Below, piece by piece: positions 22,171 to 57,064 of a DNA stretch of 64,000 nt. Every line of letters starts with the position of its first letter. The stretch's first letter is position 1. Source of the DNA: Octopus sinensis (taxonomy: Eukaryota); contig NC_043019.1 in NCBI RefSeq assembly GCF_006345805.1, positions 11,717,360-11,781,359 of the forward strand, written 5' to 3'. The notes beneath the pieces are model-generated. The model searched no databases, had not been told where the DNA came from, and saw nothing but the letters and a program-made list of their open reading frames with translations. Made by a program: the position numbers and the translations under genes.

Positions 22171-22203
<33 letters not shown>

Positions 22204-29170: not shown

Positions 29171-29208
<38 letters not shown>

Positions 29209-36765: not shown

Positions 36766-36833
36766 GATTTAATTTCACTTTTAACTTATAATAAAAGCGA
36801 CCGGGAAAGTCAGGGAATTTATTTCTATTTAAA

Positions 36834-39800
36834 ATGTCTATCTCTACAGCGACAATAAAATATTTGATTGGAATCAACTCGGATATTTCTAGCAATGTCT
36901 TTTATCTTGATGAACAAACGATCCTTTATCCGTGTGGATGTTACTGTGTCTTTTATAACACCGAACAGAAGACCATGCGATTGCTCTTAGCATCAGAGAA
37001 AGGAGCTGAAATAACTGCCATGACTATTAGTCCTAACCGTAGCTATACCGCTGTTGGTTTGAAATACGAGAAACCGTCTGTAAACATTCTTGATTTGTTT
37101 GCTTTCCGGAAAAAGAAGACATTAGTTTGTCCGGAATTATTTTCTTGTAAAATAGTTAGTTTGTCTTTTTCATCTGATTCTCGATGCATCATAGCGATAT
37201 GTGACGATCCATCACGAACTCTCCTTTACTGGTCATGGGAAAAATCGAGGCTACTCATAACAGCCAAAGTCACGAATTCTGCGGTACCAGAGACTCTTAA
37301 TTTTATCAGCTTCAATCCGCAGGATCATCTTAACGTGTATGCTTTTGGTAATGGACTTCTAAAATCATTCCGATTCGTCGAAGGTAACCTCAAACAGTTC
37401 AATTTCCCGAAGATCGAACCTCGAGATTTCAAATGCTATTGTTGGGATGCGAACGAGCGTCTTTTGGTGGGTACAGGCAATGGAAGAGTGTTGTTTATTG
37501 AAGGTACGGATTTAAGACTCGATTTTAACGTATTCCAATATTTGAATATTCCAAACGATGCTGCAAGGACGCACGGAGTGACAGCAATCGTAAGTTATTC
37601 TAAAGGGTTTATTACAGCGTGTGGTACGCAATATGTGCAGTTTTTTGAAAGAGTTGAAGACAAAGATAATTACAAGTTTGTTAGGGATGTTTTGCTACCG
37701 TCAGATACATTGGACAATAACAAATTATGCGACCAGGTAATAAAATGGATGGTGGTGAATCCAACGGAGGATGTTCTCGTTATTAGCACCAATATGAAAC
37801 AAATGTATTCTACACAAGTTAATCCACCTGAAACGAAATATATGAAGCAGACGAGCGTGTTTGATGTTTTAGTACAGCCTTTCCATTATAAATCTGTCAC
37901 TGGCTGTTGTGTCTGCTCGTGGAAGCCTCTCATTGCAACCAGCTCTCTGGACGGTTCCATAAAAGTGTGGAACTATGAAACGTTTACCTTAGAACTTTCT
38001 AAAGACTTTTCAGAAGAAGTATACAGCATATCTATGCACCCAATGGGACTATTTCTTCTGGCAGGTTTCAGCGACAAATTACGTTTCATGTATATTCTCA
38101 GAGACGACTTCAAACAGTTTAAGGAATTCAGTATCCGCATGTGTACACATTGCAACTTCAGTCGAGGTGGGCACATGTTCGCGGCGGTCAACAACAACTT
38201 TATACAGGTATACTCGTCGATTACTTTCGAAATGCTGGCCAACCTGAAAGGTCACAACGGCAAAGTTCAAGCTACCGCCTGGTGTATGGATGATAATAAT
38301 CTAATCTCATGCGGTTTGGATGGGGCTGTTTATGACTGGGAATTAAAAACCGGGAAACGAATTGGTCAGTGTGTCTTGAAATCCTGCGCCTATAACGATG
38401 TCATTATAAATTTCGAAAACAAGAATTTCTATGCCGTAGGCTCAGATTATTCTATGAAAGAAATCCACGAGTCTGACATACTGCGAACATTTCCATCGGG
38501 TGACGTGCTTTTCACTTCAATTGCTCTGTCATGGTCCAATACAATGCTATTTGTTGGCACTAATAATGGTTATATAAGAAGCTTGGAGTATCCTATAATG
38601 CTTCCGGGAAGATGGCTTGATTATCCATGTCATAGTCTCGACACTACACACATGACTTTTACAACTGATGATCGATACTTAATCTCAACATCAAAAGATG
38701 CCTCGATAGCAATATGGAAGGTAAACGTTGCTGAAAGTCGGGCTTTGAAACGTGACCGGAGTACTATTTGGTCCGAGGAGATCTTAATCCCAAGGTCCGA
38801 TTTGGAAGAAAAAAATAGTTCGCTTGCAGAGTTGAAATCTCGTGTAGAAGAACTTAACATGGAAAACGAATACCAGATGCATCTCAAAGACATGAGCTAC
38901 AACGACAAAATAAGAGAGATGACCGAAACATTTATTCAAGAAATGGAAAATTTGAAAACCAAAAACCAAGCCCTACAGAATGACAAAACCAAACAGGAAT
39001 CCAGACATGACGAGATAATGACAGAAATGCTGGAAAAGCACTGCAGAGAACTTCAGTTCATCGAATCTGCCAACGATAAAAAGTTATTAGAAGAATATGA
39101 AAAATTCAAGGATCTTCATAATAGGTTGTTAAGACTGCAAGAAGAACATGACCAACAGGTACAAGAACTGGAAGAAAAGCAAGAACTTCTACAAGAACAA
39201 TTGACAGCACACTACGAAGGGAAACTTCAAGAAGTGGAGAAGAAACTGGAGCAGCGCCTGGAGGATATTATGCTGCAGCAGAAAGAATACGATGAAATGA
39301 AAAAACAGATCGAGGAAGATGCAGATATGGAAATCGTCTACACAAAAACCGATTACGAACAACAGCTGTATCACGAGAGATATTCCAATTCTAAAATCAA
39401 AGATGAAAACAGTATTTTGAAGAAGAAGCTCTTAGCTTTCCCCAAAGAACTAAAAGAAAGCAAGGAAGAGTGTAAAAAGTATAAACTCGAGATAAAGAGA
39501 CTGAACATTATTATAGGTAATCTAGAGAAAGATATACAAAGTTTAAAGAAAGAACTACAGAACCAAGATCACGGACTACAGGACGAAGAGAAACGGTTCT
39601 ATGATCTGAAGTTGAAGAATCATGAAATCGAGAAACTGAAATGCGAACTTGAATACAACAAGATCATCGAACTGAGACAGCAAATCGAACAGAGGGAGGT
39701 GGAAATTAGTAACATGAAGGAGCAGATCAAAGCTATGCAAAGCGAACTGGAAAACTTCACTCAACAGTTTATCATCATGGACCACACGACAGCAGAAACG

Positions 39801-40211
39801 AAACAGAAACTGGCGGCCACTTCTCTAGAATTGAGCAAAGAACGGATGTCGCTACATCGGAAAACAGCTTTGTTGGATAGGTTCTGCGCCGATCTTATCG
39901 ACTGCACGTCCTTCATACAAGACCCGATGAGGTTAAAGAGCAGTATCAAAGCCCTCTATGCCAAATACATCGAGAGGAATGTCGATAAGATTGTCACTAC
40001 AGATCCCAACATACAGGTGGAATGGGGTCGGCAGCGGAACCATTTCGAATACAGCATACACAAACTGAAGCACCAGTTGAACCGCACCGTGAAAAACGCT
40101 TCTCTGGAGAATGAGGTCCTGGTAAATAAATGCAATAAAATGGGAGAAGTGTTGCAATTGGAGAGAGAAAAGAACCGTCGTTTGCTGTCTATAATGGAAC
40201 GAGCTAAATGA
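36834..40211 (+). CDS. CFAP57: Cilia- and flagella-associated protein 57 (WDR65)-like, intronless copy 1, 1125 aa
   Basis: Single 3378-nt ORF with N-terminal WD40 repeats and a long C-terminal coiled coil. Recognisable CFAP57 motifs: NVFYLDEQTILYP, KPLIATSSLDGSIKVWNYE, GFSDKLRFM, LKGHNGKV, DGAVYDW...CVLKSC, EEILIP.SDLEEKN...ELK.RVEEL.MENEYQ, IEEDADMEI. Confidence 0.92.
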   Translation: MSISTATIKYLIGINSDISSNVFYLDEQTILYPCGCYCVFYNTEQKTMRLLLASEKGAEITAMTISPNRSYTAVGLKYEKPSVNILDLFAFRKKKTLVCPELFSCKIVSLSFSSDSRCIIAICDDPSRTLLYWSWEKSRLLITAKVTNSAVPETLNFISFNPQDHLNVYAFGNGLLKSFRFVEGNLKQFNFPKIEPRDFKCYCWDANERLLVGTGNGRVLFIEGTDLRLDFNVFQYLNIPNDAARTHGVTAIVSYSKGFITACGTQYVQFFERVEDKDNYKFVRDVLLPSDTLDNNKLCDQVIKWMVVNPTEDVLVISTNMKQMYSTQVNPPETKYMKQTSVFDVLVQPFHYKSVTGCCVCSWKPLIATSSLDGSIKVWNYETFTLELSKDFSEEVYSISMHPMGLFLLAGFSDKLRFMYILRDDFKQFKEFSIRMCTHCNFSRGGHMFAAVNNNFIQVYSSITFEMLANLKGHNGKVQATAWCMDDNNLISCGLDGAVYDWELKTGKRIGQCVLKSCAYNDVIINFENKNFYAVGSDYSMKEIHESDILRTFPSGDVLFTSIALSWSNTMLFVGTNNGYIRSLEYPIMLPGRWLDYPCHSLDTTHMTFTTDDRYLISTSKDASIAIWKVNVAESRALKRDRSTIWSEEILIPRSDLEEKNSSLAELKSRVEELNMENEYQMHLKDMSYNDKIREMTETFIQEMENLKTKNQALQNDKTKQESRHDEIMTEMLEKHCRELQFIESANDKKLLEEYEKFKDLHNRLLRLQEEHDQQVQELEEKQELLQEQLTAHYEGKLQEVEKKLEQRLEDIMLQQKEYDEMKKQIEEDADMEIVYTKTDYEQQLYHERYSNSKIKDENSILKKKLLAFPKELKESKEECKKYKLEIKRLNIIIGNLEKDIQSLKKELQNQDHGLQDEEKRFYDLKLKNHEIEKLKCELEYNKIIELRQQIEQREVEISNMKEQIKAMQSELENFTQQFIIMDHTTAETKQKLAATSLELSKERMSLHRKTALLDRFCADLIDCTSFIQDPMRLKSSIKALYAKYIERNVDKIVTTDPNIQVEWGRQRNHFEYSIHKLKHQLNRTVKNASLENEVLVNKCNKMGEVLQLEREKNRRLLSIMERAK

Positions 40212-40367
40212 AAAAAAAACGAAAAACGAAAAAGAAAATGGATCTAATTTTTGATCATTGGACTTCAATCATTCAAACAAAACGAAACGAAACGGCCGGT
40301 TTTTACATTCAGCAATAAAAACCGTGCTGTTAAGTAATTACTATTTTAAAGGTTATTGTTATTAATT

Positions 40368-40373
40368 AATAAA
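40368..40373 (+). terminator. Polyadenylation signal of CFAP57 copy 1
   Basis: AATAAA in a 3'UTR block (tattgttatt..taataaagtcaa.ttca) conserved in all three copies, followed by T-rich sequence. Confidence 0.55.
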
Positions 40374-40428
40374 GTCAATTTCACTGAATTCTTTCACTTT
40401 ATTGTCTTTCATGCCATCGTTTTCATAC

Positions 40429-40429
<1 letters not shown>

Positions 40430-40459
<30 letters not shown>

Positions 40460-40870
40460 TGTATGTATGTATGTATGCATGTATGTATGTGTGTGTATGT
40501 ATGTGTGTATGTATGTATGTATGTGTGTGTATGTATATGTGTGTGTATGTATGTATGTGTGTATGTATGTTTGTATGTATGTCTGTGTGTATGTATGTAT
40601 GTATGTATGTAGTATGTATGTATGTATGTATGTATGTATGTGTGTGTGTATGTATGTATGTGTGTATGTATGTTTGTATGTATGTCTGTGTGTATGTATG
40701 TATGTATGTATGTATGTATGTATGTATGTGTGTGTGTATGTATGTGTGTGTGTATGTATGTGTGTATGTATGTATGTATGTATGTGTGTATGTATGTATG
40801 TATGAATGTATTTATGTATGTATGTATGTGTTGTATGTATGTATGTATGTATGTATATGTGTGTGTATAT
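40430..40870. repeat. (TATG)n/(TG)n microsatellite
   Basis: Direct reading. Confidence 0.95.
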
Positions 40871-41299
40871 GTTTGTCCCCCGAACATCGCTTGACAACCT
40901 ATGCTGGTGTGTTTACGTCCCCGTAACTTAGCGGTTCGGCAAAAGCAACGATAGAATAAGTACTAGGCTTCCAAAGAATAAGTCCTGGGGGTCGATTTGC
41001 TCGACTAAAGGCGGTGCTCCAGCATGGCCGCAGTCAAATGACCACAAATGTATTCTACTACACAAGTTAAAAAGGTTTCAGCTGCAAAGAAGTCTTTAGT
41101 TATAGGCTCTGGAATTCATTGACAAAATGAAAATCTTTAACGTAGAAAAAATTTTTCTTTTTAGCTTTCCACTTGTGATGAATGATAATGTAGAGGCAAT
41201 CCTGAAGTTGAACGTCGCGAAGCATTCAAAATACAAAATTCAATGGCTGTTGAAACGAAAGCTCTAGATCTTTTAGCTCGGGGTACCAATTTGTAAAGG

Positions 41300-41500
41300 A
41301 TCGTGTGATGAGAGATAACTGGTGGTAAGAATCACCCAAAGCAGCCACAAAGAAAGAAAGGCTCATAACAGGAACAGAAGAATTCTTTCCGGAGACGGCG
41401 AATGAGATAGTGTCTTCAATAAGCCGGCGTCCCCTAACGTCCACAAGGAGAGAATAGTGATGTAAGAAGTCAGCACTAAGAGATTTGGCTTTTATTTCTA
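41300..41500 (-). mobile_element. Degraded Ty3/Gypsy pol (protease C-terminal) relic
   Basis: Peptide LSADFLHHYSLLVDVRGRRLIE resembles the ILGADFL..F.LLVD....RL.D motif of Gypsy proteases. Confidence 0.5.
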
Positions 41501-41516
41501 GCATGTGGAGAGACAG

Positions 41517-41758
41517 GATCTTTTCCTTTTGAACGGCACATGTCAACACAATTTCTAGTTAACTAAGCACTTTAAAACTTCGTATACTGGTAGAATGTGT
41601 CAAAATAAAACATTATTTTCTCTTGGCTTTCTTGATAAAATTGTAATTCGTTTGTTTAACGTAGTTTAATTTTTCGAATTTTAACCAATCAATTGCCTCT
41701 AATTGAGCTAAAATCATTTGCTGCGTCTAAAACTGAGACAACATCCTGTCACTAACCT

Positions 41759-41789
<31 letters not shown>

Positions 41790-42368
41790 AACCCTAAATT
41801 TTAGCCTTTCGTTTTTTTTTTCTTAATTGTTAGATTAATTTAATTGTTACGCGTGTGTCTAAAATTATTCGTTTTGTTTTTGTTTTGAGTTTTTGCTTTC
41901 GTTTTAGCATTTCGTTATGTATACGTACAGAAAGCGTGTGTATAAAATTATAGAATTATTTTGTTTGTTAATTGTTTAAATTATTTTCCATTGCTTTCGT
42001 TTTAGCCTTTCGTGTTTTTTTTTTCTTAATTGTTATCCTTAAATTAATTTAACAATTAAGAAAAAAATACGAAAGGCTAAAATTTAGGGTTAGGGTGAGG
42101 GTGAGGGTTAGGGTTAGAGTTAGGGTTAGTGACAGGATGTTGTCTCAGTTTTAGACGCAGCAAATGATTTTAGCTCAATTAGAGGCAATTGATTGGTTAA
42201 AAATTCGAAAAATTAAACTACGTTAAACAAACGAATTACAATTTTATCAAGAAAGCCAAGAGAGAAAAAAAATGTTTTATTTTGACACATTCTACCAGTA
42301 TACGAAGTTTTAAAGTGTTTAGTTAACTAGAAATTGTGTTGGCATGTGCCGTTCAAAAGGAAAAGATC
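41517..42368. mobile_element. Fold-back element with ~330-bp terminal inverted repeats containing telomere-like (TTAGGG/TGAGGG)n tracts
   Basis: GATCTTTTCCTTTTGAACGGCACATG... / ...CATGTGCCGTTCAAAAGGAAAAGATC; (CCCTAA/CCCTCA)n at 41752-41797, (TTAGGG/TGAGGG)n at 42084-42129; no obvious TSD. Confidence 0.85.
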
Positions 42369-42593
42369 AAAGAGACTTTCTAAGCTTGACTTCATGCGCT
42401 GGTTGAAAATCAACTAAAAAAAAATTCTAGGGTCGATACATTCGACTAAAAATTCAGATCTAGCCTTTCTCATTCGCAAAATGAACCTCCCTTTAATTTT
42501 GCTCCGATTGCTTTCAATTTTGGTGTACCAATGCAACTCTGAATTTTGATTACGATCAACGAATTATTTTATCTCGTAAGTTAAAGAATTTGA

Positions 42594-43002
42594 GGCGATC
42601 TTTCGTCTCTAGTAGACCTTTCCGTCGATTTCCGTAAAATTTTTTTTTTTTTTACATATGGGCTTGCGGGAACTTTTGAAGTAATATACATACATATACA
42701 CATACACCGAGTAAAAAATTCCAGTTATCTTTCTTTCACACATTACTGTCTCTTCACACACACTAACAGAAGCACTTCACTTACACAACATACTGTCTGT
42801 CTCCCACACCCCATCAAACACACACATATACATCAATGCTCCCATGCACGGTAACTTCAAAAGAACTTCCCTCGTCATACAATCGCTTTCTCTTAGTCTC
42901 TTTCGCTCTCATTACTTCAAAAGTTCCCGCAAGCCCATATGTAAAAAAAATTTTTTTTTTACGGAAATCGACGGAAAGGTCAACTAGAGACGAAAGATTG
43001 CC
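42594..43002. mobile_element. MITE with ~90-bp TIRs and perfect 8-bp TSD (GAATTTGA), Merlin-like termini
   Basis: GGCGATCTTTCGTCTCTAGT... / ...ACTAGAGACGAAAGATTGCC; GAATTTGA at 42586-42593 and 43003-43010. Confidence 0.85.
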
Positions 43003-43184
43003 GAATTTGATGTTATTTGGAATTAAAGTTGGGAAATTTGTGCAATTTTAGCCAATCAACAGACAGCGAAGCATTAACAGCTTGTTACCACAACAAACGC
43101 ACGTTGTGTTGTTTTACCCGCTTGTATTGATTCTTCTTCACACTACGAGATTTACTTCACCCGCGTGTTTTATTTTAAGAAAGA

Positions 43185-43563
43185 CTAGCAGTATAGCCCA
43201 GCGTTGCTCGGGCTTGTTTTCTTTTCGACCCTTTAGAATTGGAATTTTTGAAAAGTAAAGATTTTGCATCAAGTGAACATTTTTCTGGTTGAAATACACC
43301 GAAAAATGGCGACACAGCAGTCAAAAAATCGTAAAAAAATAGGGATTTTCATAGAAAAAAAAGCACCTTTTTGATGCAAATAATTTTTGGTCTTGACATG
43401 GTCTGATTTGAATTTTATCTTCTACGGAATGAAGAGCAAGCCTTCTTCTATCATACTCTCAATTTTGGTCAACTTGCGCCGCAGGGTCTCGGAGGAGATA
43501 GTGTTAGTTGAAGGCTACCAAACCTGCCACTCACAGACAACTTCAGCTTTATATATTTAGAGA
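43185..43563 (-). mobile_element. Non-autonomous Helitron (different internal sequence)
   Basis: Plus strand begins ACTAGCAGTATAGCCCAGCGTTGCTCGGG and ends caacttcagctttatatatttagagat, i.e. a TC...CTAG element on the minus strand. Confidence 0.75.
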
Positions 43564-43999
43564 TTAGAATGGGACAAGTTTAAATGAGAGTTTTTCTTTC
43601 TCCTCCTTTCCCTCTTACACCTCCGCTTTGTTCATTAAACTCTATCTTATCTTTCGACTTCCCTCCCTTTCCTTCATCTCACTCCCCTCATTCCATCACT
43701 CTTTTAGTTTCCCTTTTCACACTGTTTTTCCTCCCACTTCTGGTTTACGTATGAAGCTCACGTGGTCCTGCGTTCCTTCTCAGTGACTGCCATTTTTAAA
43801 AAAAATTTGCTGATGTAAAATTCTGTTGTCTTTTATAAATTTCTTTTCTTTCAAATTTTCCCCGAAAAAGGATTCTGTTCAAAACTGGATTTTCCACTCT
43901 CCACGGCAAGTTCACTGCATTTTTATTGGTTTTAGTGTAAAAGTCTTGCCGACGCATGCCAACAACAGCCTCTTTTGAGTCTGTTTGACAATATACATA

Positions 44000-44079
<80 letters not shown>

Positions 44080-44099
44080 TCGCTTCTCTATTTTCTTAT

Positions 44100-45230: not shown

Positions 45231-45415
45231 TGGCACCCATCATCTTCCTCTCTTGCCACTGACCATTCCGAGCATGATGTCCTTCTCCAGGGATTTTCTC
45301 GCATAATATGATCGAAATATGCCAATCTATGCTTGGTGATCCTAGCTTCTAGCGACATTTTCGGCCTGATCTACTTAAGAACTTCTCCATTGGTGAGGCT
45401 CGCTGTCCATGGAAA

Positions 45416-46196: not shown

Positions 46197-46218
46197 CACG
46201 TGACCAGCATTATTTAAA
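46197..46218 (+). promoter_or_regulatory. Candidate core promoter of CFAP57 copy 2: CACGTGAC + TATA-like TATTTAAA
   Basis: CACGTGAC 46197-46204 and TATTTAAA 46211-46218; same motifs and spacing as upstream of copy 3. Confidence 0.5.
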
Positions 46219-46296
46219 GCCTCGCTTTCGGATTTCCATCACCATAACACATCGTCCTAGGAACAGCAATCAGGTAAGTTAGGGAAAAGTTTTCGA

Positions 46297-49200
46297 ATGG
46301 CTTTCTCTTCAAAAGTGATTTTAAAATATTTGATTGGAATCAGTTCGGATATTTCTAACAATGTTTTTTATTTCGACAAACAAACGATCCTTTATCCGTG
46401 TGGTTGTTACTGTGTTTTTTATAACACCCAACACAAAACAATGAGGATGCTCAAAGTATCAGAGAAAGGATTTGAAATAACTGCCATGGCTTTAAGTCCG
46501 AATCGAAACTTTTTAGCTTTTGCTTATAAATGCGAGAAACCATTTGTAAATATTTTTGATATATTCAGGTTACAGAAACAGAAGACCTTATTTTGCCAAG
46601 AATTAAACACTTGTTCGATCGTTAGTTTGTGTTTTTCATCTGATTCTCGATATGTCGTAGCCATATGTGACGACCCATCAGCAACCCTCCTTTACTGGTC
46701 ATGGGAAAAAATGCAAGAACCCATTTCGGTCAAGGTGACGGCTTCACGAGAACCAAAGACTCTTCATCATGTGAGCTTTGATCCTCTCGATCATCTCAAC
46801 GTGTATGTGTTTGGCAATCGTCTTCTTAAATTGTTCCGTTTCGTAGGAAACAGGCACAAACAGTTCACTTTCCCTAAGATTGTACCTCAAGATTTCAAAT
46901 GCTATTCCTGGAAAGCGGACCGTCTTTTGGTGGGTACGGACAGCGGTCGAGTGTTATGTATTGAAGGTAGGTATTTAAAACTTGATTTTAACGTATTCCG
47001 ATATTTGAATCCTCCAAACAATGCCGCAAGGATGCTTGGAGTGACGGCAATTGTTAGTTATTCTAAAGGATTTATTACTGCGTGTGGTACACAATCTGTG
47101 CAGTTTTTTGAAAGCAATATTCATGACGATAATTACAAGTTTGTTAGGAATGTTTTGCTACCGTCAGATACATTGGAGAATAACAAACTGTGCGACCAGA
47201 TTATAAAATGGATGGTGATGAATCCAACGGATGATGTTCTCGTTATTAGCACCAACATGAAACAACTGTATTCTACACCAGTTCATCCAACAAAACATAA
47301 AGTAACTGTGTTTGAGGTTTTAGTACAACCTTTCCATTATAAATCTATCACTGGATGTTGTGTCTGTTTGTGGAAACCTCTCATTGCAACCAGCTCTCTG
47401 GACGGTTCCATAAAAGTGTGGAGCCGCGAAACGTTTACCTTAGAATTTTCTAAAAACTTTTCAAAAGAAGTATACAGCATATCTATGCACCCAACGGGAC
47501 TATTTCTTCTGGCAGGTTTCAGCCACAAATTACGTTTCATGTATATTCTTAGGGACAGTTTCAAACCGTTTAGAGATATCGACATCCACATGTGTACACA
47601 TTGCAACTTCAGTCGAGGTGGCCACATGTTCGCGGCGGTCAACAACAACTTTATACAGGTATACTCGTCGATTACTTTCGAAATGGTGGCCAACCTGAAA
47701 GGTCACACCGGCAAAGTTCAAGCTACCGCTTGGTGTATAGGTGATAATAATCTAATCTCATGCGGCTTGGATGGAGCAGTTTATGAATGGGAAATAAAAA
47801 GCGAGAAGCTAATCCGTAAGTGTGTCTTGAAATCCTGTGCCTGTAACGATGTTGCCATTAACACCGAGTACAAAAAACTATATGTGGCAAGCTCGGATCA
47901 TTCTTTGAGAGAAATAACCAAATCGCATATAATGCAAACGTTTCCATCGAGTAAGTTTCTTTTCACATCAGTTGCTATGTCTTGGTCCAATACAATGTTA
48001 TTTGTAGGAACTAATAATGGTTATATAAGAAGCTTGGAGTACCCTCCAACACAAATTGGAAAATGGAGTAATTATCCTTGTCATAGCCTCGGAATAACGC
48101 ACATGATTTTCACGACTGATGATCGATACTTAATTTCAACATCAAGAGATGCTTCAATTGCAATATGGAAGGTTAATGATGATGAAGATGGGAGTTTGAA
48201 AATCGACCAGGGTACCGTTTATCCTAAATTGATTTTAATTCCAAAATCTGATGTGGAAAAAAAAAATTGTCTAATTTCAAAGCTGGAAATCCGCATTGAA
48301 GAACTTGAAAAGGAAATAGAACACAGAAGGCGCCTTAAAATCTTGAACTACAACAACAGAATAAATGCGATGTATGAATATAATAATAGAAAAATAGAAA
48401 ATTTGAAAATCAAAAATGAAATTCTAGAGAATAATAAAAGCAAACAAGAAGCGGAATACACTGAACAAATATCACATATTAAGGAAAAGCAGAGCCAAAA
48501 TCTGCAGTTAATCGAATCTGTTACCGATAAGAAGTTACTGAAAGAAGACGAAAATGTTAAGACTATTCCAAACATGTTAATAGCAGTAGAAGAGAAAAAC
48601 AAACGAGAGATAAAAGAACTGGAAGAAAAGCAAGAAATTCTACTTGACCAGTTGATAGAAGAGTACGAAGGGAAGCTTGTAGATTTAGAGAAGAAAAGGG
48701 AACAGTGCACCGAAAATATTTTACTGCAGCAGAAAGAATTTGAAGAAATGCAGAATCTGATCGAAATTGATGCCGAAATGGAGTTCGTTTCTAGAAAAAC
48801 TGATTTCGAACGATTATTGTTTCAAGAAAGACATTTTGCTTCTAAACTAAAAGACGAAAATAGTGTTTTGAAGAAAGAGGTCTTAGATTTCTCCACAAAA
48901 CTAAAAATACATGATGAAGACCGTGACAACTACAAACTGAGAATTGAGGTATTGAACACTGTCGTAGATAAGAAGCAGAATTGGATAGATTATTTGCAGG
49001 AAGTTCTGCAGCTTCGAGATCGAAAGCCACAGGGTGAAGAGAAACATTTCTATGATATGGTGCTGGAGAACGCAAGAATCGTGAAATTGAAAACTGACCT
49101 GGAATTGAAACATATTATCGAACTGAGACAGCATTTACAAGAGAGGGAGGCTGAAATCAATGCCATGAGGGCGACATTCGAGATTATGCAATGTCAACTG

Positions 49201-49701
49201 GAGAAAATCACACATCAGTTACACATTGTGGACTTCTCGGCAAGGGAAACGAAACAGAAACTAGTGGCTACCTCTCGAAAACTGGACAGAATACGTAAAA
49301 CACTGAGCCAAAAATCGGCCGTGTTACACACGTTCTACTCCGACCTTATAGGCTGCATATCCTTCATAGATGATCATCAGAAACTGAAGGGCAGCATCAT
49401 AGCTCTTTGTGAAAAATACAACCAGAAGAATATCAAAAAGATCATCGCATCATACAAAAACCGAATCGCCAACATACATAAGAAATGGGATCGGCAGCGG
49501 TACAATTTCGAATACATGGTACACAAACTGAAGATTGAGACTAAGGCCACCGTGAAAAAGTGCACTCTACAGAATTGTCTGCTAACAGCCAAAATCAATA
49601 ACAATCGAGGAAAGTTGTTGTTGGAGAGAGAAAAAGAACCGTTTTTTGCAGTCTTAAAAAGCCTCTCGGTAGAATTGTCTGCTAACAGCCAAAAGCAATA
49701 A
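46297..49701 (+). CDS. CFAP57: CFAP57-like, intronless copy 2, 1134 aa
   Basis: Single ORF collinear with copy 1 throughout; WD40 core near-identical, coiled coil diverged; the last residues derive from an internal tandem duplication. Confidence 0.9.
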   Translation: MAFSSKVILKYLIGISSDISNNVFYFDKQTILYPCGCYCVFYNTQHKTMRMLKVSEKGFEITAMALSPNRNFLAFAYKCEKPFVNIFDIFRLQKQKTLFCQELNTCSIVSLCFSSDSRYVVAICDDPSATLLYWSWEKMQEPISVKVTASREPKTLHHVSFDPLDHLNVYVFGNRLLKLFRFVGNRHKQFTFPKIVPQDFKCYSWKADRLLVGTDSGRVLCIEGRYLKLDFNVFRYLNPPNNAARMLGVTAIVSYSKGFITACGTQSVQFFESNIHDDNYKFVRNVLLPSDTLENNKLCDQIIKWMVMNPTDDVLVISTNMKQLYSTPVHPTKHKVTVFEVLVQPFHYKSITGCCVCLWKPLIATSSLDGSIKVWSRETFTLEFSKNFSKEVYSISMHPTGLFLLAGFSHKLRFMYILRDSFKPFRDIDIHMCTHCNFSRGGHMFAAVNNNFIQVYSSITFEMVANLKGHTGKVQATAWCIGDNNLISCGLDGAVYEWEIKSEKLIRKCVLKSCACNDVAINTEYKKLYVASSDHSLREITKSHIMQTFPSSKFLFTSVAMSWSNTMLFVGTNNGYIRSLEYPPTQIGKWSNYPCHSLGITHMIFTTDDRYLISTSRDASIAIWKVNDDEDGSLKIDQGTVYPKLILIPKSDVEKKNCLISKLEIRIEELEKEIEHRRRLKILNYNNRINAMYEYNNRKIENLKIKNEILENNKSKQEAEYTEQISHIKEKQSQNLQLIESVTDKKLLKEDENVKTIPNMLIAVEEKNKREIKELEEKQEILLDQLIEEYEGKLVDLEKKREQCTENILLQQKEFEEMQNLIEIDAEMEFVSRKTDFERLLFQERHFASKLKDENSVLKKEVLDFSTKLKIHDEDRDNYKLRIEVLNTVVDKKQNWIDYLQEVLQLRDRKPQGEEKHFYDMVLENARIVKLKTDLELKHIIELRQHLQEREAEINAMRATFEIMQCQLEKITHQLHIVDFSARETKQKLVATSRKLDRIRKTLSQKSAVLHTFYSDLIGCISFIDDHQKLKGSIIALCEKYNQKNIKKIIASYKNRIANIHKKWDRQRYNFEYMVHKLKIETKATVKKCTLQNCLLTAKINNNRGKLLLEREKEPFFAVLKSLSVELSANSQKQ

Positions 49702-49863
49702 AATTCCAGGAAAGTTTTCGCTGGAGAAAATAACCGTCTTTTACTGTCTTAAAAGGCATCTCTGTTGAATTGTCAGCTAGCAACCAAAAGCAATAAGATG
49801 CAAGGAATAAGAGAGAGAAAAGATTTTTTTTTTTTTGTCTTTTAAATGGAGTGAGAGAAATGA
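49571..49863 (+). repeat. Three imperfect ~95-100-bp tandem copies of the 3' end of CFAP57 copy 2
   Basis: Unit starts (a/t)gaattgtc.gcta.ca.ccaaaa at 49571, 49671 and 49766; the third unit ends with the ancestral-type gagagaaatga end. Confidence 0.8.
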
Positions 49864-50013
49864 AAATGGATGTTATTTGTTGGTCGTTGGGTTTTAATCA
49901 TGCAAACGAAATGAAACGAAACGATTCGTATATTGTCACATGTCCATTTTTTACATTGAATGATAAAACTCATGCTGTGAAGCAAGAACTTTTCTTATAA
50001 TATTGTTATTGCT

Positions 50014-50019
50014 AATAAA
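50014..50019 (+). terminator. Polyadenylation signal of CFAP57 copy 2
   Basis: AATAAA in the same conserved 3'UTR block. Confidence 0.55.
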
Positions 50020-50339
50020 GTCAACTTCATCGAAGTCGTTCATTTCATTTGTATTTCATGTCATCGTTCAGGAGTCGATAGAATAAAGTACCAGTCAAAT
50101 ACCAAAGTCAGTGTTATTAGCTGTACTCTTTGGTACTCTGTCCTTATATTAAAAATAGATGTCATTACAAATGGTGATGGGCACGGTGGATTGGCAGATT
50201 CGGTAAACATTGAAACGAAATGCCTTGCAGATTTGGATGTGTTACCTTAACTTTGAGTTCAAATCTTGCCGAAATCAACCTAGTCTTTCATATTCCAGGC
50301 TCGATAAAATGTAACATCAGTAAAGTACTGAGATTAAAT

Positions 50340-52800
50340 TAATCACTGATGTCACTGCAACACTCATAAACATCTCTTTACACCAATTCCATTTCTATAA
50401 TTTTCTCTCCTGCTCTCCAATATTTTTTAATTTTGTCTCAACTTAAATCCATTCATCAATAATACTTACCGGCCAAAGCCTTGTGGGTGGATTTTGTAGA
50501 CGGAAAATCAAATATCGTGTTCCTCTCCGAAATACAGAAAACTCTGGAGCTCTGTCTCCAACCCATCTCAGCTGTCCGGGCTATATTTTATAATTCTAAC
50601 TTCACCACGAAAGGTGGTGTCTGTGATTGCATAGACTCCGTTCTCCCTGTTCCTTACCTCTCTCTCTCTCTCGTGGATTCAAATATCAACCCCTTCAAGT
50701 TACTTTGACTCGCAGTCTACCGCTTTCACTCACCCAAATGCATTTCGTCCTTCTAGCGTTTTCCGAACTTCGCAGACTACCAACTAGTCTTCAACCAAAT
50801 CAAGTCTTGCATTAGGGACAGAAATCTTATTTCACCCATCCCCAAAGTCATCGTCCTTGGTAACTTCAACATCACATCTCATGGTTGTCTCATACATCTC
50901 ACGGTGATGTCATTGGTGCAGAAGCCGAATCCTTTGTAATCTTCAACTCTTTCCATCAGTTTGTCTCATCTCCAACTTGTATCCCAGATCAACACACAGT
51001 TAAGCCAAACACTCTTGATCGCTTTTCTCACTGCTAAACCTAATCTCTACCGAACTGCAACTGTCTCGACACCTATTGCATCGTCTGACCATTGCTTCAT
51101 TGTAACTAATCACACACAACGTCTCCAAAATTCGCACCCAACGACAATACAAGACCTCCGAATAATCTCATATATCATTCCTACTGACCACCCATCAGCC
51201 AAGTTACAAACTCCCTTTTAGGTCTGTCCCTTCATATCTCGAATACAACAAAATCAACAATGTCTCAAGTCCCCGAATCTATACACTTAGAGTTGTGCTG
51301 AAGCTGTTTAAACGAGAAACAAGCCCTACATCAGCAGCAGAAGAGAACCCACCCTCAGAAATCCGGACGTCTTTTATCCAGCGACAGAACTCGTGTTAGA
51401 TCACTCTCTGAATCACCCTGGGGGATGGTGCTGTTGCCCAGAACAACACTGGCCCCCAAACCTCGAATTTCCATCCCTTCTAAACAATCACCACAACGGT
51501 TTCCGTGAAGACAGACCCGCTAGTTACTTGCTCTCCTATATCTTGAAGAAATATGGGGAAGGCCATATTGTTGATTTCGGCATCAGTAAAGTTTTCCTCA
51601 TTATCTAGCAAGCAAATCTCCTTTCGAAACTTCCCACCTATGGGCTTCACGCGTCGTTCATCTCTTAGACAGGTAGCTCCCTATCAGCTCACCCTATCGC
51701 AGCATGTATTGACAGTCCTTTCTGACCTTCATTCTATCAACTTCGGCGTACCCCAGAGCGATACTTCTACCCCTCCCCGCCCCACAACGCCATTTTCTTC
51801 CTCCTGTATCGGCACGTCTAACAATGTTCACTCTTTTCAAAGGTCGGTGAGCTGGCAGAATCGTTAGCACGCCGGGCGAAATGCTTAGCGGTATTTCGTC
51901 TGCGTTACGTTGTGAGTTCAAATTCCGCCGAGGTCGACTTTGCCTTTCATCCTTTCGGGGTCGATAAATTAAGTACCAGTTACGCACTGGGGTCGATGTA
52001 ATCGACTTAATACCTATGTCTGTCCTTGTTTGTCCCCTCTGTGTTTAGCCCCTTGTGGGTAATAAAGAAATAGGTATTACATTTCGTTCTTCCTTAACCT
52101 TCTCCAAAACATGCGTCATCCACTCACAAAAAACTAGATGCTACAAGTCGAACCGTCATTGACTCCATTTTCAACAGCAAGGAAACGCAAGCTACAAATT
52201 TGTGTGTTTTCTATGCTATTGAAAAGATAAGACTAAGAAATCTTCATCACACCACACATGCCTAACCTCGAAATTGTTCCAAATGTTGGACTTCACTATC
52301 ACCGAGGATCTGTTTAAAAACATCATTAACGTAACTTAAATCAGACCATAACGATCCAGAAGATACTTCATCTCCCCACCACCACCACCACCACCACCTC
52401 TTCCAACAATAATTTATCCTCTACAAAGTTCTGGCGGAGCCAACAGTGGGGCATTGTTTTCACATCTAGGACGGCCCTACTGCTGCCGTGGCACACAAAG
52501 ACAGCCCATCCTAAAAATGACCAGCCCATTGATAAACATAAGGCCACTAACATTCTCTTGGCTATTGCCCACAGGCGCTGTCTCATTTCTCTGCTTTGTC
52601 TATCTCAGAACTGCTGGTGTCGTGCCACTTCCGTCCAGGCATGACCTACACACCCGAATTTCCTCCTCTCATAACTTTTGTTATGTCCAAACTCACCAAG
52701 AACCTCCACCCAGTCCTTCTACGAACATCGGCCTTCTGGTTTTCTCTTTGCCCTCGTGTCTTTAGCGTAAGCGTTGACTCACAATGATTCACAACAAACA
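50340..52800 (+). mobile_element. Heavily degraded APE-type non-LTR retrotransposon (Jockey/CR1-like) relic interrupted by a SINE
   Basis: Scattered motifs in order: VIVLGNFNI (~50850), SSDHCFI (~51080), DFGISKVF (~51575), INFGVPQSD (~51740); C/T-rich coding-strand bias; many frameshifts. Confidence 0.5.
51841..52075 (+). mobile_element. tRNA-derived SINE family B with Nin/Deu-like domain (other copies ~4070-4270, 18590-18817, 20078-20280, 34587-34975)
   Basis: gagcTGGCAGAATCG...GAGTTCAAATTCC boxes followed by GCCTTTCATCCTTTCGGGGTCGATAAATTAAGTACCAG (Nin/Deu-domain-like). Confidence 0.8.
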
Positions 52801-52944
52801 TGAATTTACTGGTCTAGCAAACCCACCCTCCTTTCCTCCTCCAAGTTTTCGTATGTTGTTTGGATTTATATATTTTTATATTAATAATTATCTTTCTAAA
52901 GATAGTGAGCTGGCAGAATTATTGGCACGCCGAGCAAAATGCTT

Positions 52945-53240
52945 TATACGTACATGCATGCATGCATACATACATACGTACGTACATACATACATACGTA
53001 CGTACATACATACATACATACATACGTACGTACGTACATACATACGTACATACGTACGTACATACATACATACATACATACATACATACATACGTACATA
53101 CATACATACGTACGTACATACATACGTACATACATACATACGTACATACATACATACATACATACATACATACATACATACATACATACATACATACATA
53201 CATACATACATACATACATACGTACATATATACATACATA

Positions 53241-53283
<43 letters not shown>
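52945..53283. repeat. (TACA/TACG)n + (TA)n microsatellite
   Basis: Direct reading. Confidence 0.95.
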
Positions 53284-53285
<2 letters not shown>

Positions 53286-53447
53286 AGGCGCAAGCGTGGA
53301 TGTGCGGTAAGAAGTTTGCTTCCCAACTACTTGGTTCCGGGTTCAGTCCCACTGCGTGGCAACTTGGGCAAGTCTCTTCTACTATAGCCTCGGGCCGACC
53401 AAGCCTTGTGAGTGGATTTTGTAGACGGAAAGTGAAAGAAGCCCGTC

Positions 53448-53486
<39 letters not shown>

Positions 53487-53596
53487 TTCATTGTGTTGTG
53501 TGTGTGTGTGTGTGTGAGTGTAGAATGGCCAAATAAAAAATGTAAAATCCAGAAAGTAATATAAAGGGAAATAGTAAATCATGCCGTCCTTCAAAT

Positions 53597-53618
53597 CACG
53601 TGACCGGAGCTATTTAAA
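53597..53618 (+). promoter_or_regulatory. Candidate core promoter of CFAP57 copy 3: CACGTGAC + TATA-like TATTTAAA
   Basis: CACGTGAC 53597-53604 and TATTTAAA 53611-53618; conserved with copy 2 while the flanks diverge. Confidence 0.5.
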
Positions 53619-53668
53619 GCCTCGAAGAGCCTCAACACCAAGCATTATCTTTGGAGCAGCATTCAGGT

Positions 53669-56600
53669 ATGTTTGGGGAACTATCTCAAATCGCTTCCTC
53701 TAAAGTGACTTTAAAATATTTGATTGGAATCAACTCGGATATTTCTAGCAATGTTTTTTTTCTCGATGAACGAACTATCTTTTATACTTGTGGTTGTTAT
53801 TGTGTCCTTTTTAACACCGAACAGAAAACCATGCGATTACTCATAGCATCAGAGAAAGGAACTAAAATAACTGCCATGGCTGTATCTCCCAACCGTACCT
53901 ATTCGGCCGTTGCTTTGTATTCCGAGAAACCAACTGTGAACATTTTTAATTTGTCAACTATGCAGAAAAGGAACACTTTAGTTTGCCACAAATTGCATTC
54001 TTGTAAGATCATTAGTTTGTCTTTTTCATCTAATTCTCGATATCTTGTGGCCATGTGTGACGACCCATCACGAACCTTACTTTACTGGTCATGGAAAAGA
54101 TCGAAACTACTTCTCACGACCAAAGTGACAGATTCTGTGGCACCGGAGACTCTTTATTGCCTTAGTTTCAACCCTCGAACACATTTCAACGTGCATATAT
54201 TTGGCGACAAGTTCCTTAAATTGGTCCGCTTCGAAGGAAACAGAAACAAACAATTCAATTTTCCGAAGATCGTACCTCAAGACTTCAAATGCTATTGCTG
54301 GGATGCGAACCAACGTCTTTTGGTGGGTACAGGCAGTGGCCGAGTGTTGTTTATCGAAGATATGGATTTAAGACTTGAATTTAATGTATTCCAATATACG
54401 AATATTTCCGACGAATCCGTCATGTCGTGTGGAGTAACGGCTATTACCAGTTATTCTAAAGGATTTATTACAGCGTGTGGTAAGAAATGTGTTCAGTTTT
54501 TTGAAAGAGATGACGTCTGGGATACTTACAAGTTTGTTAGGAATGTTTGCCTTCCGCCAGATGTTTTGGAAAACCGTGATCTGTGTAAACAAATTATAAA
54601 ATGGATGGTGGTGAATCCATCGGAGGACGCTCTCGTTATTAGCACCAACATGAAACAACTGTATTATACACCAGTTCATCCAACAAAACATAAGGTAACT
54701 GTGTTTGATGTTTTAGTACAGCCTTTCCATTATAAATCTATCACTGGATGTTGTGTCTGCTCGTGGAAGCCTCTCATTGCAACCAGCTCTCTGGACGGTT
54801 CCATAAAATTGTGGAACCGCGAAACGTTTACCTTAGAATTTTCTAAAAACTTTTCAGAAGAAGTATACAGCATATCTATGCACCCAACGGGACTATTTCT
54901 TCTGGCAGGTTTCAGCGACAAATTACGTTTCATGTATATTCTTAGGGATGACTTCAGACCGTTTAGAGATATCAACATCCACATGTGTACACATTGCAAC
55001 TTCAGTCGAGGTGGCCACATGTTCGCGGCGGTCAACAACAACTTTATACAGGTATACTCGTCGATTACTTTCGAAATGGTGACCAACCTGAAAGGTCACA
55101 CCGGTAGAGTTCAAGCTACCGCCTGGTGTATAGGTGATAATAATCTAATCTCATGCGGCTTGGATGGGGCAGTTTATGACTGGGAATTAAAAACCGGGAA
55201 GTTAATCGGTCAGTGTGTCTTGAAATCCTGCGCCTGTAACGATGTTGCAATTAACACCGAGTACAAAAAACTATATGTGGTTAGCTCGGATCATTCTTTG
55301 AAAGAAATCCACAAATCGAATTTAATGCAAACGTTTCCACCGAGTGAATGTCTTTTCTCATCAGTTGCTATGTCTCGGTCCAATACAATGTTATTTGTAG
55401 GAACTAATAATGGTTATATAAGAAGCATGGAGTACCCTCCAATACCAGGGGGAAGATGGCTTGATTATCCTTGTCATAGCCTCGAAACAACGCACATGAT
55501 TTTCATGACTGATGATCGATACTTAATTTCAACATCAAGAGATGCTTCAATTGCAATATGGAAGGTTAATGATGATGATGAAGATGAGAGTCCGGTATAT
55601 GGCCAGAGTACCATTTGGTCTGAAGAAATTTTACTTCCGGCGGAAGAGTTAAAAGAAAAAATGTGTTCAATTTCGAAGCTGAAATCCCGTGTCGAAGAAC
55701 TTTCGCAGAAAAACGAGTACACATTGCAACTCGAAGACAATGACTTCAACGAAAAAATAAAAGAGATAGGCGAAAATTATAGTCAAGAAATTGAAAATTT
55801 GAAACTCAAAAATGAAATTATAGAGGAAGAAATTGTCAAAGAAAAATCTAGGCATGACAAAAAAATGAGTGTAATTATTAACGATCACTGCACACAAATA
55901 GAATCCATCTGTTCTACTAATGAGGAAAAGTTAATGGTAGAATATGCAAAACAAAAAGAGCTTGAAGATAAATTAACAGAACTAGAAAAAGAACAAGAGC
56001 AAGAGATACAGCAACTGGAATTAACGCAAGTGAGTTTTGAAACACGATTGACAGATGAATATGAAAAGAAAGCCGAAGGTTTGGAGATGAAAATTTATGA
56101 GTGCGAAGAAAATTTATCGACGCTGCAGAAAGAATGCGATAAAATAGAGAAATTGATTGAAGATGATGCCGAAAAGGAAGCCATCTCCACAAAAGTCGAA
56201 TATGAAAAACTTTTGTATGTCGAGAGATGTGCCTTTTCTAGAATAAAATCCGAACGTAGCACTTTGCGGAAGAAACTCTTAGCTTTCCCTAAACAATTAA
56301 AAGAAAACGAAGATGAATGCTGGAAGCTAAAGATGGAATTAGAAAAACTAAAGCTTATTAAAAGTAATCTAGAGGACGACATAGTGATCTTAAAGAAAGG
56401 AGTGAAGCTCCAATCTCAAGGATTAACTGATGAAGACAAGCGTTTCTGCGAACAGAAGCTGATGCATGAAGATGTCACGAAACTGAGATGTAAATTGGAA
56501 TGGGAAAAGATTATCGAACTCAGACAGCTTGTGGAAGAGAGGGAGACGGAAATCAATAAAACGATGAAGCAAATGGCTGGTATGCGAAACCAGTTGGAAA

Positions 56601-57064
56601 CCTTCACCTCGCAGTTTTTCATAACGGACTATAATACAGCAGAAATGAAGCTGAAATTAGCGGCCACCTTTAAAAAGCTGGATGATGTTCGTAGAAAGCG
56701 ACAACAGAAGACAAAATTGTGGCTCAGGTTCTGTTCCGATTTAAACGACCTCGTGTCTTTTAGAATGCAAGATCCACAGCAACTGAAGAACCGCATAAAA
56801 TCTCTTTATGAAAAATACGTTGTTAAGAATGTCGATAAGCCCCTCAGTTTAGATCCCAATACGCTGATCCAACGGGGTCGGCAGCGGAACCATTTCGAAT
56901 ATACCATACTCAAACTGAAATATACGTTGAAGTGCACCGCCAAAAAGAGCAATCAGAACAATCAACACCTGATCAACAAACGTAATAATCTGGCAGCAGA
57001 GATGCAGTCGAAGAGAGAAGAGAACAGTCATCGTTTGCTTTCGAAAATGGAGAGAGAGAAATGA
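53669..57064 (+). CDS. CFAP57: CFAP57-like, intronless copy 3, ~1131 aa from the first ATG (53669)
   Basis: Single ORF collinear with copies 1 and 2. The ORF-track start at 53651 is TTG; the first ATG is 53669, and the position homologous to copy 2's ATG reads ATC (53690-53692). Confidence 0.9.
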   Translation: MFGELSQIASSKVTLKYLIGINSDISSNVFFLDERTIFYTCGCYCVLFNTEQKTMRLLIASEKGTKITAMAVSPNRTYSAVALYSEKPTVNIFNLSTMQKRNTLVCHKLHSCKIISLSFSSNSRYLVAMCDDPSRTLLYWSWKRSKLLLTTKVTDSVAPETLYCLSFNPRTHFNVHIFGDKFLKLVRFEGNRNKQFNFPKIVPQDFKCYCWDANQRLLVGTGSGRVLFIEDMDLRLEFNVFQYTNISDESVMSCGVTAITSYSKGFITACGKKCVQFFERDDVWDTYKFVRNVCLPPDVLENRDLCKQIIKWMVVNPSEDALVISTNMKQLYYTPVHPTKHKVTVFDVLVQPFHYKSITGCCVCSWKPLIATSSLDGSIKLWNRETFTLEFSKNFSEEVYSISMHPTGLFLLAGFSDKLRFMYILRDDFRPFRDINIHMCTHCNFSRGGHMFAAVNNNFIQVYSSITFEMVTNLKGHTGRVQATAWCIGDNNLISCGLDGAVYDWELKTGKLIGQCVLKSCACNDVAINTEYKKLYVVSSDHSLKEIHKSNLMQTFPPSECLFSSVAMSRSNTMLFVGTNNGYIRSMEYPPIPGGRWLDYPCHSLETTHMIFMTDDRYLISTSRDASIAIWKVNDDDEDESPVYGQSTIWSEEILLPAEELKEKMCSISKLKSRVEELSQKNEYTLQLEDNDFNEKIKEIGENYSQEIENLKLKNEIIEEEIVKEKSRHDKKMSVIINDHCTQIESICSTNEEKLMVEYAKQKELEDKLTELEKEQEQEIQQLELTQVSFETRLTDEYEKKAEGLEMKIYECEENLSTLQKECDKIEKLIEDDAEKEAISTKVEYEKLLYVERCAFSRIKSERSTLRKKLLAFPKQLKENEDECWKLKMELEKLKLIKSNLEDDIVILKKGVKLQSQGLTDEDKRFCEQKLMHEDVTKLRCKLEWEKIIELRQLVEERETEINKTMKQMAGMRNQLETFTSQFFITDYNTAEMKLKLAATFKKLDDVRRKRQQKTKLWLRFCSDLNDLVSFRMQDPQQLKNRIKSLYEKYVVKNVDKPLSLDPNTLIQRGRQRNHFEYTILKLKYTLKCTAKKSNQNNQHLINKRNNLAAEMQSKREENSHRLLSKMEREK

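Follow-up and report, generated by a model that had tools for sequence, protein, structure and literature searches.

Our analysis of a 64,000-nucleotide window of the Octopus sinensis genome (contig NC_043019.1) leads us to favor, as the reasonably probable explanation, that its three intronless reading frames are part of a five-gene array of CFAP57-B, a shortened, cephalopod-specific form of CFAP57. On this explanation an intronless copy likely took over from the ancestral intron-bearing gene; B then likely arose by DNA duplication and, in the sperm tail, is the likely successor of the canonical gene, A, as the scaffold on which dyneins dock.

CFAP57 serves as a docking scaffold for inner-arm dyneins; it is deeply conserved, and in humans it is a ciliopathy gene. 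In other organisms, where its dimers extend along the 96-nm axonemal repeat, the propellers sit at inner dynein f, and the coiled coil provides the docking site for dyneins g and d, for RS3 and for CCDC96/113. Nearly all named non-cephalopod animals among the matches listed have one closely similar form of this protein.

Three CFAP57 reading frames in the window

All three reading frames lie on the forward strand: W1 (positions 36834-40211; 1125 aa), the one copy of the array that is conserved; W2 (46297-49701; 1134 aa), which is fast-evolving; and W3 (53669-57064; 1131 aa), a mosaic copy. Each runs from ATG to stop with no internal stop codon, the best PDB matches are to CFAP57 (E 4e-276), and the starts are 9,463 bp (W1-W2) and 7,372 bp (W2-W3) apart, which agrees with the original prediction of three intact single-exon CFAP57 genes in one orientation, spaced by 7-10 kb. 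In W3, the ATG common to the other copies reads ATC, and an in-frame ATG is found 7 codons upstream. The many changes and in-frame indels described earlier were also confirmed, with pairs involving W1 being 58-62% identical in amino acids and 76% in nucleotides, and with indels among the three copies comprising whole codons without exception.

In a substitution-only neutral simulation, none of 2000 reading frames was still open at 0.1 changes per site; since the window copies differ by a dS of 0.42-0.53, their open state is not due to chance. Mis-assembly can be excluded as well, because a DNA-like sequencing run (X11) has contigs on W1, on W2 and on the spacer between W2 and W3, each piece with 0-6 differences, and because orthologues of all three genes are annotated in two further Octopus species. 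Tandem beta-propellers at the N-terminus, matched in Pfam, with a long C-terminal coiled coil behind them give the layout of the CFAP57 family. The AlphaFold model of W2, built on an alignment that included canonical homologues, contains two propellers at a pLDDT of about 90 and long helices (mean pLDDT 79.6). Foldseek retrieved CFAP57 chains as the top matches of this model, and W2 is predicted to keep the CFAP57 fold.

The promoter and 3'UTR/polyA blocks were originally described as shared by all copies. This holds for the 3' side, where a block with AATAAA is common to W1 (40212-40420, AATAAA at 40368), W2 (49850-50120, at 50014) and W3 (57065-57330, at 57223), all on the forward strand, but upstream it holds strongly only for W2 and W3. 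Their upstream blocks (46197-46219 and 53597-53619, forward strand), which read CACGTGAC ... TATTTAAAG and recur at the upstream copy U2, reach a local score of 85 (0/1000 shuffles). The W1 block (36740-36796, forward strand), consisting of CACCTGAC, CATGTGAC(GTCA) and an AT-rich box, is only weakly similar to that of W2 (score 33, 0/1000 shuffles) and to that of W3 (score 20, 512/1000 shuffles). From their sequence, the blocks upstream of W1 and W2 are putative promoters. About 67% of window positions 1-36000 is multi-copy sequence, in line with the decayed repeats noted before; the neighboring gene, which had been described as split into exons, was seen just as scattered minus-strand coding stretches with one DOMON match under the cut-off (E 6e-5; one relevant piece of 16 scanned).

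Intron loss and the origin of CFAP57-B

The cluster of three is real, but two further B copies and a canonical gene lie beyond the window. Genome searches, which give lower bounds on copy number, retrieved five B copies in O. sinensis, namely W1-W3 and, 78-100 kb upstream on the opposite strand, U1 and U2; gene A, a canonical full-length CFAP57, is located 0.7 Mb from the window copies. The coding regions of all six genes are single-exon, as read from octopus DNA only. In the assembly gene A carries a frameshift, where an independent DNA-like run has one extra base at 30/30 depth, on a contig covering the whole coding region; since the O. vulgaris A protein is whole too, this frameshift is probably an assembly error.

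The proposal that the window genes are retrocopies beside a multi-exon parent did not hold. Within the completeness of the assembly, three queries (full W1, a 160-aa propeller piece and a 65-aa invariant motif) found no multi-exon octopus CFAP57, and A itself is single-exon; as a positive control, CFAP58, p28, RSPH4/6 and CCDC96/113 appeared with the same search tool as split exons on long contigs. The only intron-bearing CFAP57 copy that we met (contig C9585) probably comes from a dicyemid parasite. This gene was considered as a decayed pseudogene or as the parent and was rejected as both, because its apparent stops and frame shifts are 19 GT-AG introns of 20-32 nt. Two adjoining introns coincide precisely with the two ends of exon 11 in the human gene (Ile586-Lys643; exon borders as given in the accessible part of PMC7444499, residue numbers taken from the PDB match). 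Judged by these 19 introns and the two common borders, the ancestral state of CFAP57 is intron-bearing.

Octopus CFAP57 thus lacks coding introns where its ancestor had them and, to the limits of the assembly, lacks a multi-exon parent, as is typical of retrogene replacement. Such a replacement, with loss of the parent, is described for amphioxus SYCP1 in the available portion of PMC5803294. Both genes have a big single coding exon where most animals have many; unlike SYCP1, CFAP57 was later duplicated into A and B and amplified. Octopus CFAP57 could have lost its introns in place or by insertion at a new locus, an event too old to have left a poly-A remnant or a target-site duplication.

Cuttlefish has A and, in these searches, one B; the A/B split is therefore older than the octopods, and the B branch is old. 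In an IQ-TREE phylogeny (LG+G4; 20 rows, from which W2, W3 and the copies of O. bimaculoides were left out) the B clade and the A clade were each supported at 100/100, and the B copies were nested with the cephalopod A genes inside molluscan CFAP57 (100/100); an octopod-only clade was rejected (p-AU 3e-66). A FastTree phylogeny comprised 32 rows, and B sits on long branches, which can mislead trees. Independently of long-branch trouble, the split is supported by a one-residue coiled-coil insertion (W1 residue 942; 39657-39659, forward strand) that is present in 14/14 B rows, 0/52 canonical rows and 0/3 cephalopod A rows of the alignment.

Compared with canonical CFAP57/FAP57/WDR65 (human 8j07_i4, Chlamydomonas 8glv_Cp), octopus B differs in being single-exon, in its five copies, in this insertion, and in two further respects. 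Within the coiled coil of CFAP57, the stretch that is most conserved (W1 residues 906-965; 39549-39728, forward strand) is eroded in all B proteins, which keep 15-31 of its 48 near-invariant residues (17 in W2, 15 in W3) as against 47-48 in cephalopod A. The C-terminus is about 70 residues shorter than the canonical median, with 7-39 residues past the reference column as against a canonical median of 83. These features weaken the label "canonical CFAP57" for B, not its origin in the CFAP57 family. Conservation is highest in the propellers, with 74-88 of the 104 near-invariant residues of propeller 2 retained, and W1 keeps 47/55 in the first coiled-coil segment.

Selection, gene conversion and RNA-like cover

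Across all 10 pairs of B copies dN/dS was 0.32-0.72 (bootstrap upper limits at most 0.84), away from the value near 1 expected of neutral copies. It was 0.32-0.47 between W1 and the other four, and about 0.7 among W2, W3 and U2, where relaxation fits as well as positive selection. The whole-gene ratio was below 1 in every pair, and a value of 1.26 was reached only in a short W3-U2 propeller-1 tract (dS 0.075). These ratios point to purifying selection on all five copies, as anticipated by the earlier suggestion of tandem amplification and maintenance.

The copies differ in their conservation between species. All five B copies have one-to-one orthologues in O. bimaculoides; W1 is 97% identical to its orthologue (XP_052831980.1), similar to A (98%), and W2, W3, U1 and U2 are 76-87% identical (W2 77%; W3 76% over the aligned part). 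In O. vulgaris, W2 and W3 are represented by truncated models of 532 and 522 aa, which are the C-terminal halves at 99%, and the O. bimaculoides models lack part of propeller 1; these shortened models may reflect faulty annotation or assembly, or genuine decay.

Two tracts of W3 resemble other copies far more closely than the rest of the gene does. Its propeller 1 (approx. 53690-54420, forward strand) is 90-96% identical in DNA to U2 (dS 0.075, versus 0.45-0.62 for the remaining W3 pairs over this propeller), and its propeller 2 (approx. 54580-55300, forward strand) is 93-96% identical to W2 (about 47190-47900; dS 0.079). At residues 341-540, W2 and W3 are 91% alike in O. sinensis and 94% in O. 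bimaculoides, and the orthologues 84-86%. Such tracts argue that the fast B copies exchange propeller segments by gene conversion (concerted evolution).

In two runs of one study with unrecorded type (X13 and X15), word depth was 288-794 on the reading frames and 3.5-9 on the unique W2-W3 spacer, as transcription would give, whereas the depth of the DNA-like run X11 was 3.5-8 on both alike. These RNA-like runs, of unlabelled tissue, cover all three reading frames, W2 as deeply as W1; none of the 24 runs carries an RNA record or a tissue label, and contig depth is an unreliable measure. W3-specific cover consists of one X13 contig among those listed, the last W3 bin is uncovered in X15, and contigs at the 5' end of W3 that show 37-49 differences probably derive from U2. 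Among the joints listed (15 of 963), none was a 5'UTR splice joint. As a separate observation, X13 has no contig on gene A (uncovered parts count as no evidence), and X24 and X17, which have 0.00 of W1's words, each have one short low-depth piece on A; this pattern would fit different tissues for A and B and is not counted as evidence.

A probable sperm-tail scaffold and its alternatives

Judged by evolutionary rate and by analogy, a role of B in sperm is likely. The octopus sperm has a tail of about 200 um with outer dense fibres and a fibrous sheath (available part of PMC11753710). In mammals, paralogues such as DNAH8/17, RSPH6A, CCDC63 and WDR64 replace general axonemal subunits in sperm, as we propose for B; CFAP57 is not among the swaps named in the accessible text of PMC11779644, and the five-copy array has no counterpart there. 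Sdic of Drosophila melanogaster, a sperm-specific dynein intermediate chain array linked to sperm competition (PMC7475035, in part), likewise combines tandem dynein-related copies, gene conversion, and one constant with several variable copies. Sdic is young and species-specific, whereas CFAP57-B is shared by octopods and cuttlefish, with copies that are 51-68% alike and orthologous across species; and sperm function is shown for Sdic, while for CFAP57-B it is inferred. We found no paper linking CFAP57 and octopus, though further supplements may hold expression or selection data, and none on an octopus testis transcriptome with "cilia- and flagella-associated" genes. CFAP57/WDR65 was not found mentioned in further related papers from the literature search, nor did CFAP57 terms turn up in the supplementary files of PMC11202624 (one) and PMC6341066 (six).

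Under the explanation that we favor, the intron-bearing ancestor would have been lost with an intronless copy in its place, which was then duplicated as DNA into A and B before the octopod-decapod split; octopods would later have amplified B, the likely sperm-tail paralogue. The B proteins would still dimerise and dock through their homogenised propellers, with W1 as the core subunit and W2, W3, U1 and U2 as variable partners, and their diverging coiled coils might alter which dyneins and spoke-base proteins are held. The rate pattern of B would then reflect selection on male gametes. We put forward more tentatively a specific version, in which coleoids have somatic and sperm forms of CFAP57, and in octopods a constant W1 pairs with four fast partners, conversion keeping the propellers compatible while the coiled coils diverge, so that, under sexual selection, dynein docking would be doublet- or zone-specific along a sperm tail that is long and reinforced. 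No matching expansion was found among the five partner families tested.

A competing explanation with a modest chance of being correct is that W1 alone carries the B function, while selection on the other copies is relaxed: they would be spares or serve dosage in an array that turns over by birth and death, with conversion keeping them partly intact. It would account for the near match of W1 to A in between-species conservation, with the other copies 4-8 times less conserved, for the few motif residues retained by W2 and W3, for their truncated models in two other octopuses, and for a dN/dS of about 0.7. Yet five reading frames remain open at dS 0.4-0.7, far beyond the divergence at which every simulated neutral frame had closed; all five have O. 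bimaculoides orthologues; the coiled-coil halves are open too, without any conversion tract; and the RNA-like cover of W2 equals that of W1. Compatible with the favored explanation, but improbable as the whole account, is joint use of A and B both in sperm and in ordinary motile cilia, with the copies assigned to separate doublets or zones so that the beat becomes asymmetric. Chlamydomonas (FAP57/FBB7/FAP331, with doublet or zone placement proposed for beat asymmetry) and Tetrahymena (CFAP57A-D, with a CFAP57A/C heterodimer) also have several paralogues per genome (PMC10266980, PMC10504270, PMC6761771, each in part), and homogenised propellers with diverging coiled coils would suit such use. 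The octopus set differs, however, in being animal, tandem, intronless, subject to conversion, and shortened where the protist paralogues are extended. A general ciliary asymmetry code would not predict its fast, conversion-driven turnover between close species, nor the single B found in cuttlefish in these searches.

We consider it quite unlikely that B has ceased to dock dynein and instead builds coiled-coil filaments of spermatids (outer dense fibres, fibrous sheath or manchette). Octopod sperm has such accessory structures, and all B proteins have lost residues of the most invariant part of the coiled coil, lack the C-terminal tail and carry a register-changing insertion; but both propellers remain the best-conserved part, and the first coiled-coil segment of W1 is conserved as a retained axonemal docking site would be. 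Least probable by far, and largely refuted, is that the copies are mis-assembled or were recently retroposed in octopus from a multi-exon parent that survives: the assembly is incomplete and genome searches give a floor, but the three queries retrieved no multi-exon parent, A has a single exon, cuttlefish shares B, and the copies are matched by independent contigs.

Intron loss, tandem sperm-gene arrays and CFAP57 paralogues are each known, and the octopus genes are therefore a new instance and combination rather than a new principle. They add an old invertebrate case in which loss of the parent gene would have been followed by amplification. With CFAP57 duplicated, its most invariant stretch altered and one form amplified fivefold in octopus, cephalopods offer a natural experiment that can show which of its parts the scaffold needs. 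The array bears on whether the choice of paralogue sets dynein composition, an idea that so far comes from protists, and it is a candidate for a locus through which sexual selection acts on the sperm of octopus.

CFAP57 copies in and around the window

As originally predicted, the window carries three long same-strand open reading frames for CFAP57: W1 (36834-40211, plus strand, 1125 aa), W2 (46297-49701, plus strand, 1134 aa) and W3 (53669-57064, plus strand, 1131 aa). Their top PDB matches are CFAP57 chains, their protein identity is 58-62%, and the indels between them comprise whole codons in every case. The expected repeat-rich surroundings were also found, with repeats making up most of the window outside the ORFs. 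Common promoter and 3'UTR blocks had been proposed as well; a 3'UTR block with AATAAA is present in all three copies, whereas the upstream block is clear in W2 and W3 and only weakly resembled in W1.

A 95-bp tandem repeat (49571-49807, 2.4 copies) runs across the end of W2, so that the C-terminus of W2 differs. A near-perfect AT-rich palindrome of 1.56 kb (95% self-complementary) lies at 28510-30073. A consensus-like splice donor, G/GTAAGT, is found just 5' of the start in W2 (46273), in W3 (53665, as G/GTATGT, where the same letters furnish a new upstream ATG) and in the further copy U2 (24 bp before the ATG). In several public models the start is placed at the Met near residue 48. Window positions 50907-51104 match the first 66 residues, which are non-homologous, of the O. 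bimaculoides W3 model (83%); since codon 11 of this frame is a stop in the window, the first exon of that model is doubtful.

Genome searching retrieved two further intact single-exon short copies on the contig of the window (C23), both on the minus strand and 78-100 kb before W1: U1 (C23:11653913-11657278) and U2 (C23:11673073-11676438). No sixth copy or fragment was found by tblastn of C23:11,630,000-11,811,359, which includes two 100-N gaps. Between the two halves of the array lies a minus-strand gene (window about 6900-22800) that presumably resembles a ferric-chelate reductase-like gene; its dispersed coding stretches begin with a signal-peptide-like segment, and one has a weak DOMON match. 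C23:12486223-12489986 holds the canonical full-length CFAP57 (A), whose O. vulgaris protein has 1255 aa. Here too the coding region is uninterrupted, except for a one-base frameshift that is absent from an independent DNA-like run. The ATG of A is immediately 3' of an AG acceptor-like site, with GTAAGT 873 bp upstream; its 5'UTR may therefore contain an intron.

Intron loss and the history of the short branch

The original prediction invoked a retrocopy of a multi-exon gene, later tandemly amplified. The tandem set stands, with five short copies rather than three, but a retrocopy beside a surviving intron-bearing parent is not supported. Genome searches with W1, a 160-aa stretch of propeller from A and the 65-aa invariant motif of A found no multi-exon octopus CFAP57; apart from the loci on C23 and contig C9585 they gave only a handful of short, weak matches (<=24.5 bits). 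The same search resolves CFAP58, p28, RSPH4/6 and CCDC96/113 into split exons on long contigs, and for DUF4200 it shows one split gene plus one match inside a single frame; across the five axonemal families tested, the intronless multi-copy state is therefore not the rule. At C3:90657250-90657603 an entire DUF4200 (CFAP73/CFAP100-type) domain lies in a single open frame of 282 aa, which may be a further axonemal gene without introns.

The CFAP57 gene on C9585 (L039:2900-6950, minus strand) is interrupted by 19 GT-AG introns, each 20-32 nt long. Because the introns of dicyemids, which are cephalopod parasites, reportedly average 38 bp (PMC6736024), this contig is probably dicyemid DNA within the octopus assembly. 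The same probably applies to the unplaced contigs C9497, C7757, C12464, C8901 and C9315, on which exon matches to CFAP58, p28 (on two of them), RSPH4/6 and DUF4200 lie close together. Two adjacent C9585 introns coincide with the borders of human exon 11, reported as Ile586-Lys643 (PMC7444499); the gene thus acts as a control, marking these two introns as ancestral and lost in octopus.

One-to-one orthologues of the five short copies and A are present in O. bimaculoides, gene models for all six in O. vulgaris, two short copies and A in Argonauta, and one short copy and A in the cuttlefish Sepia (Acanthosepion) pharaonis. In an IQ-TREE analysis of 20 rows with long branches, W2 and W3 excluded, octopod and cuttlefish short copies group together as clade B (100/100), the A genes form its sister clade (100/100), and both fall inside molluscs; a clade restricted to octopods is rejected (p-AU 3e-66). 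A one-residue insertion, found in 14/14 B rows, 0/52 canonical rows and 0/3 A rows, is an independent character in agreement, and backs this grouping despite the long branches. The simplest order is intron loss (by retroposition or in place), A/B duplication before the octopod-decapod split, and amplification of B in octopods. This history, taken apart from any sperm mechanism, is very probably correct. For cuttlefish, ENA contigs of 25 kb and 66 kb carry calls for full-length products, which only suggests that A and B are intronless there. The land snail Bradybaena similaris has an independent long-branched second CFAP57 (proteins P0137, P0035) without the B insertion; in this mollusc, which also fertilises internally, the gene may have duplicated in parallel.

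Maintenance and divergence of the copies

That the copies are maintained was supported by dN/dS values of 0.32-0.72 for the 10 B pairs (Nei-Gojobori; bootstrap upper limits <=0.84), lowest in pairs including W1, and by a neutral simulation in which 0/2000 ORFs remained open at 0.1 changes per site. Identity to the O. bimaculoides orthologue is 97% for W1, similar to A (98%, O. vulgaris versus O. bimaculoides), 87% for U1, 78-79% for U2, 77% for W2 and 76% for W3. The main rival, relaxed decay of every copy except W1, appears unlikely; counting against full maintenance are annotated proteins, with half-length O. vulgaris W2 and W3 models and O. bimaculoides W2 and W3 models lacking part of propeller 1.

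W3 is a mosaic, with propeller 1 near U2 (dS 0.075), propeller 2 near W2 (dS 0.079) and a coiled coil near neither. The same pairs are also closer to each other within O. bimaculoides than orthologues are between species: across residues 341-540, W2 and W3 are 94% alike there (91% in this genome), versus 84-86% for cross-species orthologues, a sign that conversion went on after speciation.

The changes in B lie within the docking filament. At W1 906-965, where canonical proteins have 48 near-invariant residues, cephalopod A retains 47-48 of them and B 15-31; the B C-terminus is about 70 residues short of the canonical median, and propeller 2 is best kept (74-88/104 near-invariant residues). 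An AlphaFold model of W2, whose input alignment contained canonical homologues, has two confident propellers and long helices, with CFAP57 chains as closest structural matches. In other organisms a CFAP57 dimer is described as spanning the 96-nm repeat: its propellers sit at dynein f, and dyneins g and d, RS3 and CCDC96/113 dock on its coiled coil (PMC10266980, PMC10504270, PMC6761771).

Expression and a possible role in sperm

In two runs of one study, of unrecorded type, contigs on the three ORFs have a word depth of 288-794 and the unique W2-W3 spacer 3.5-9, whereas in a DNA-like run both lie at 3.5-8. Although contig depth is a crude measure and the runs carry no RNA or tissue label, the excess looks like transcription. 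Most of W1 is also covered in a run from a related organism that is guessed to be RNA.

Public databases label these proteins 'CFAP57-like'; in the literature and two papers' supplements that we searched, with most subscription journals and some supplements outside scope, the cephalopod duplication, intron loss and array were undescribed. Each ingredient, whether intron loss, tandem arrays of sperm genes or paralogues of CFAP57, has precedent.

On balance we favour a mechanism in which B would take over from A in the sperm tail, with W1 as a constant subunit and W2, W3, U1 and U2 as rapidly changing partners. A role in sperm is suggested by the rate pattern, the parallel with the Sdic array (PMC7475035), sperm-specific paralogue swaps described in mammals (PMC11779644) and the octopus sperm tail, described as long and reinforced (PMC11753710). 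It is also suggested by a report that genes under positive selection in O. bimaculatus are enriched for sperm-motility terms, in a passage that does not name CFAP57 (PMC13669787).
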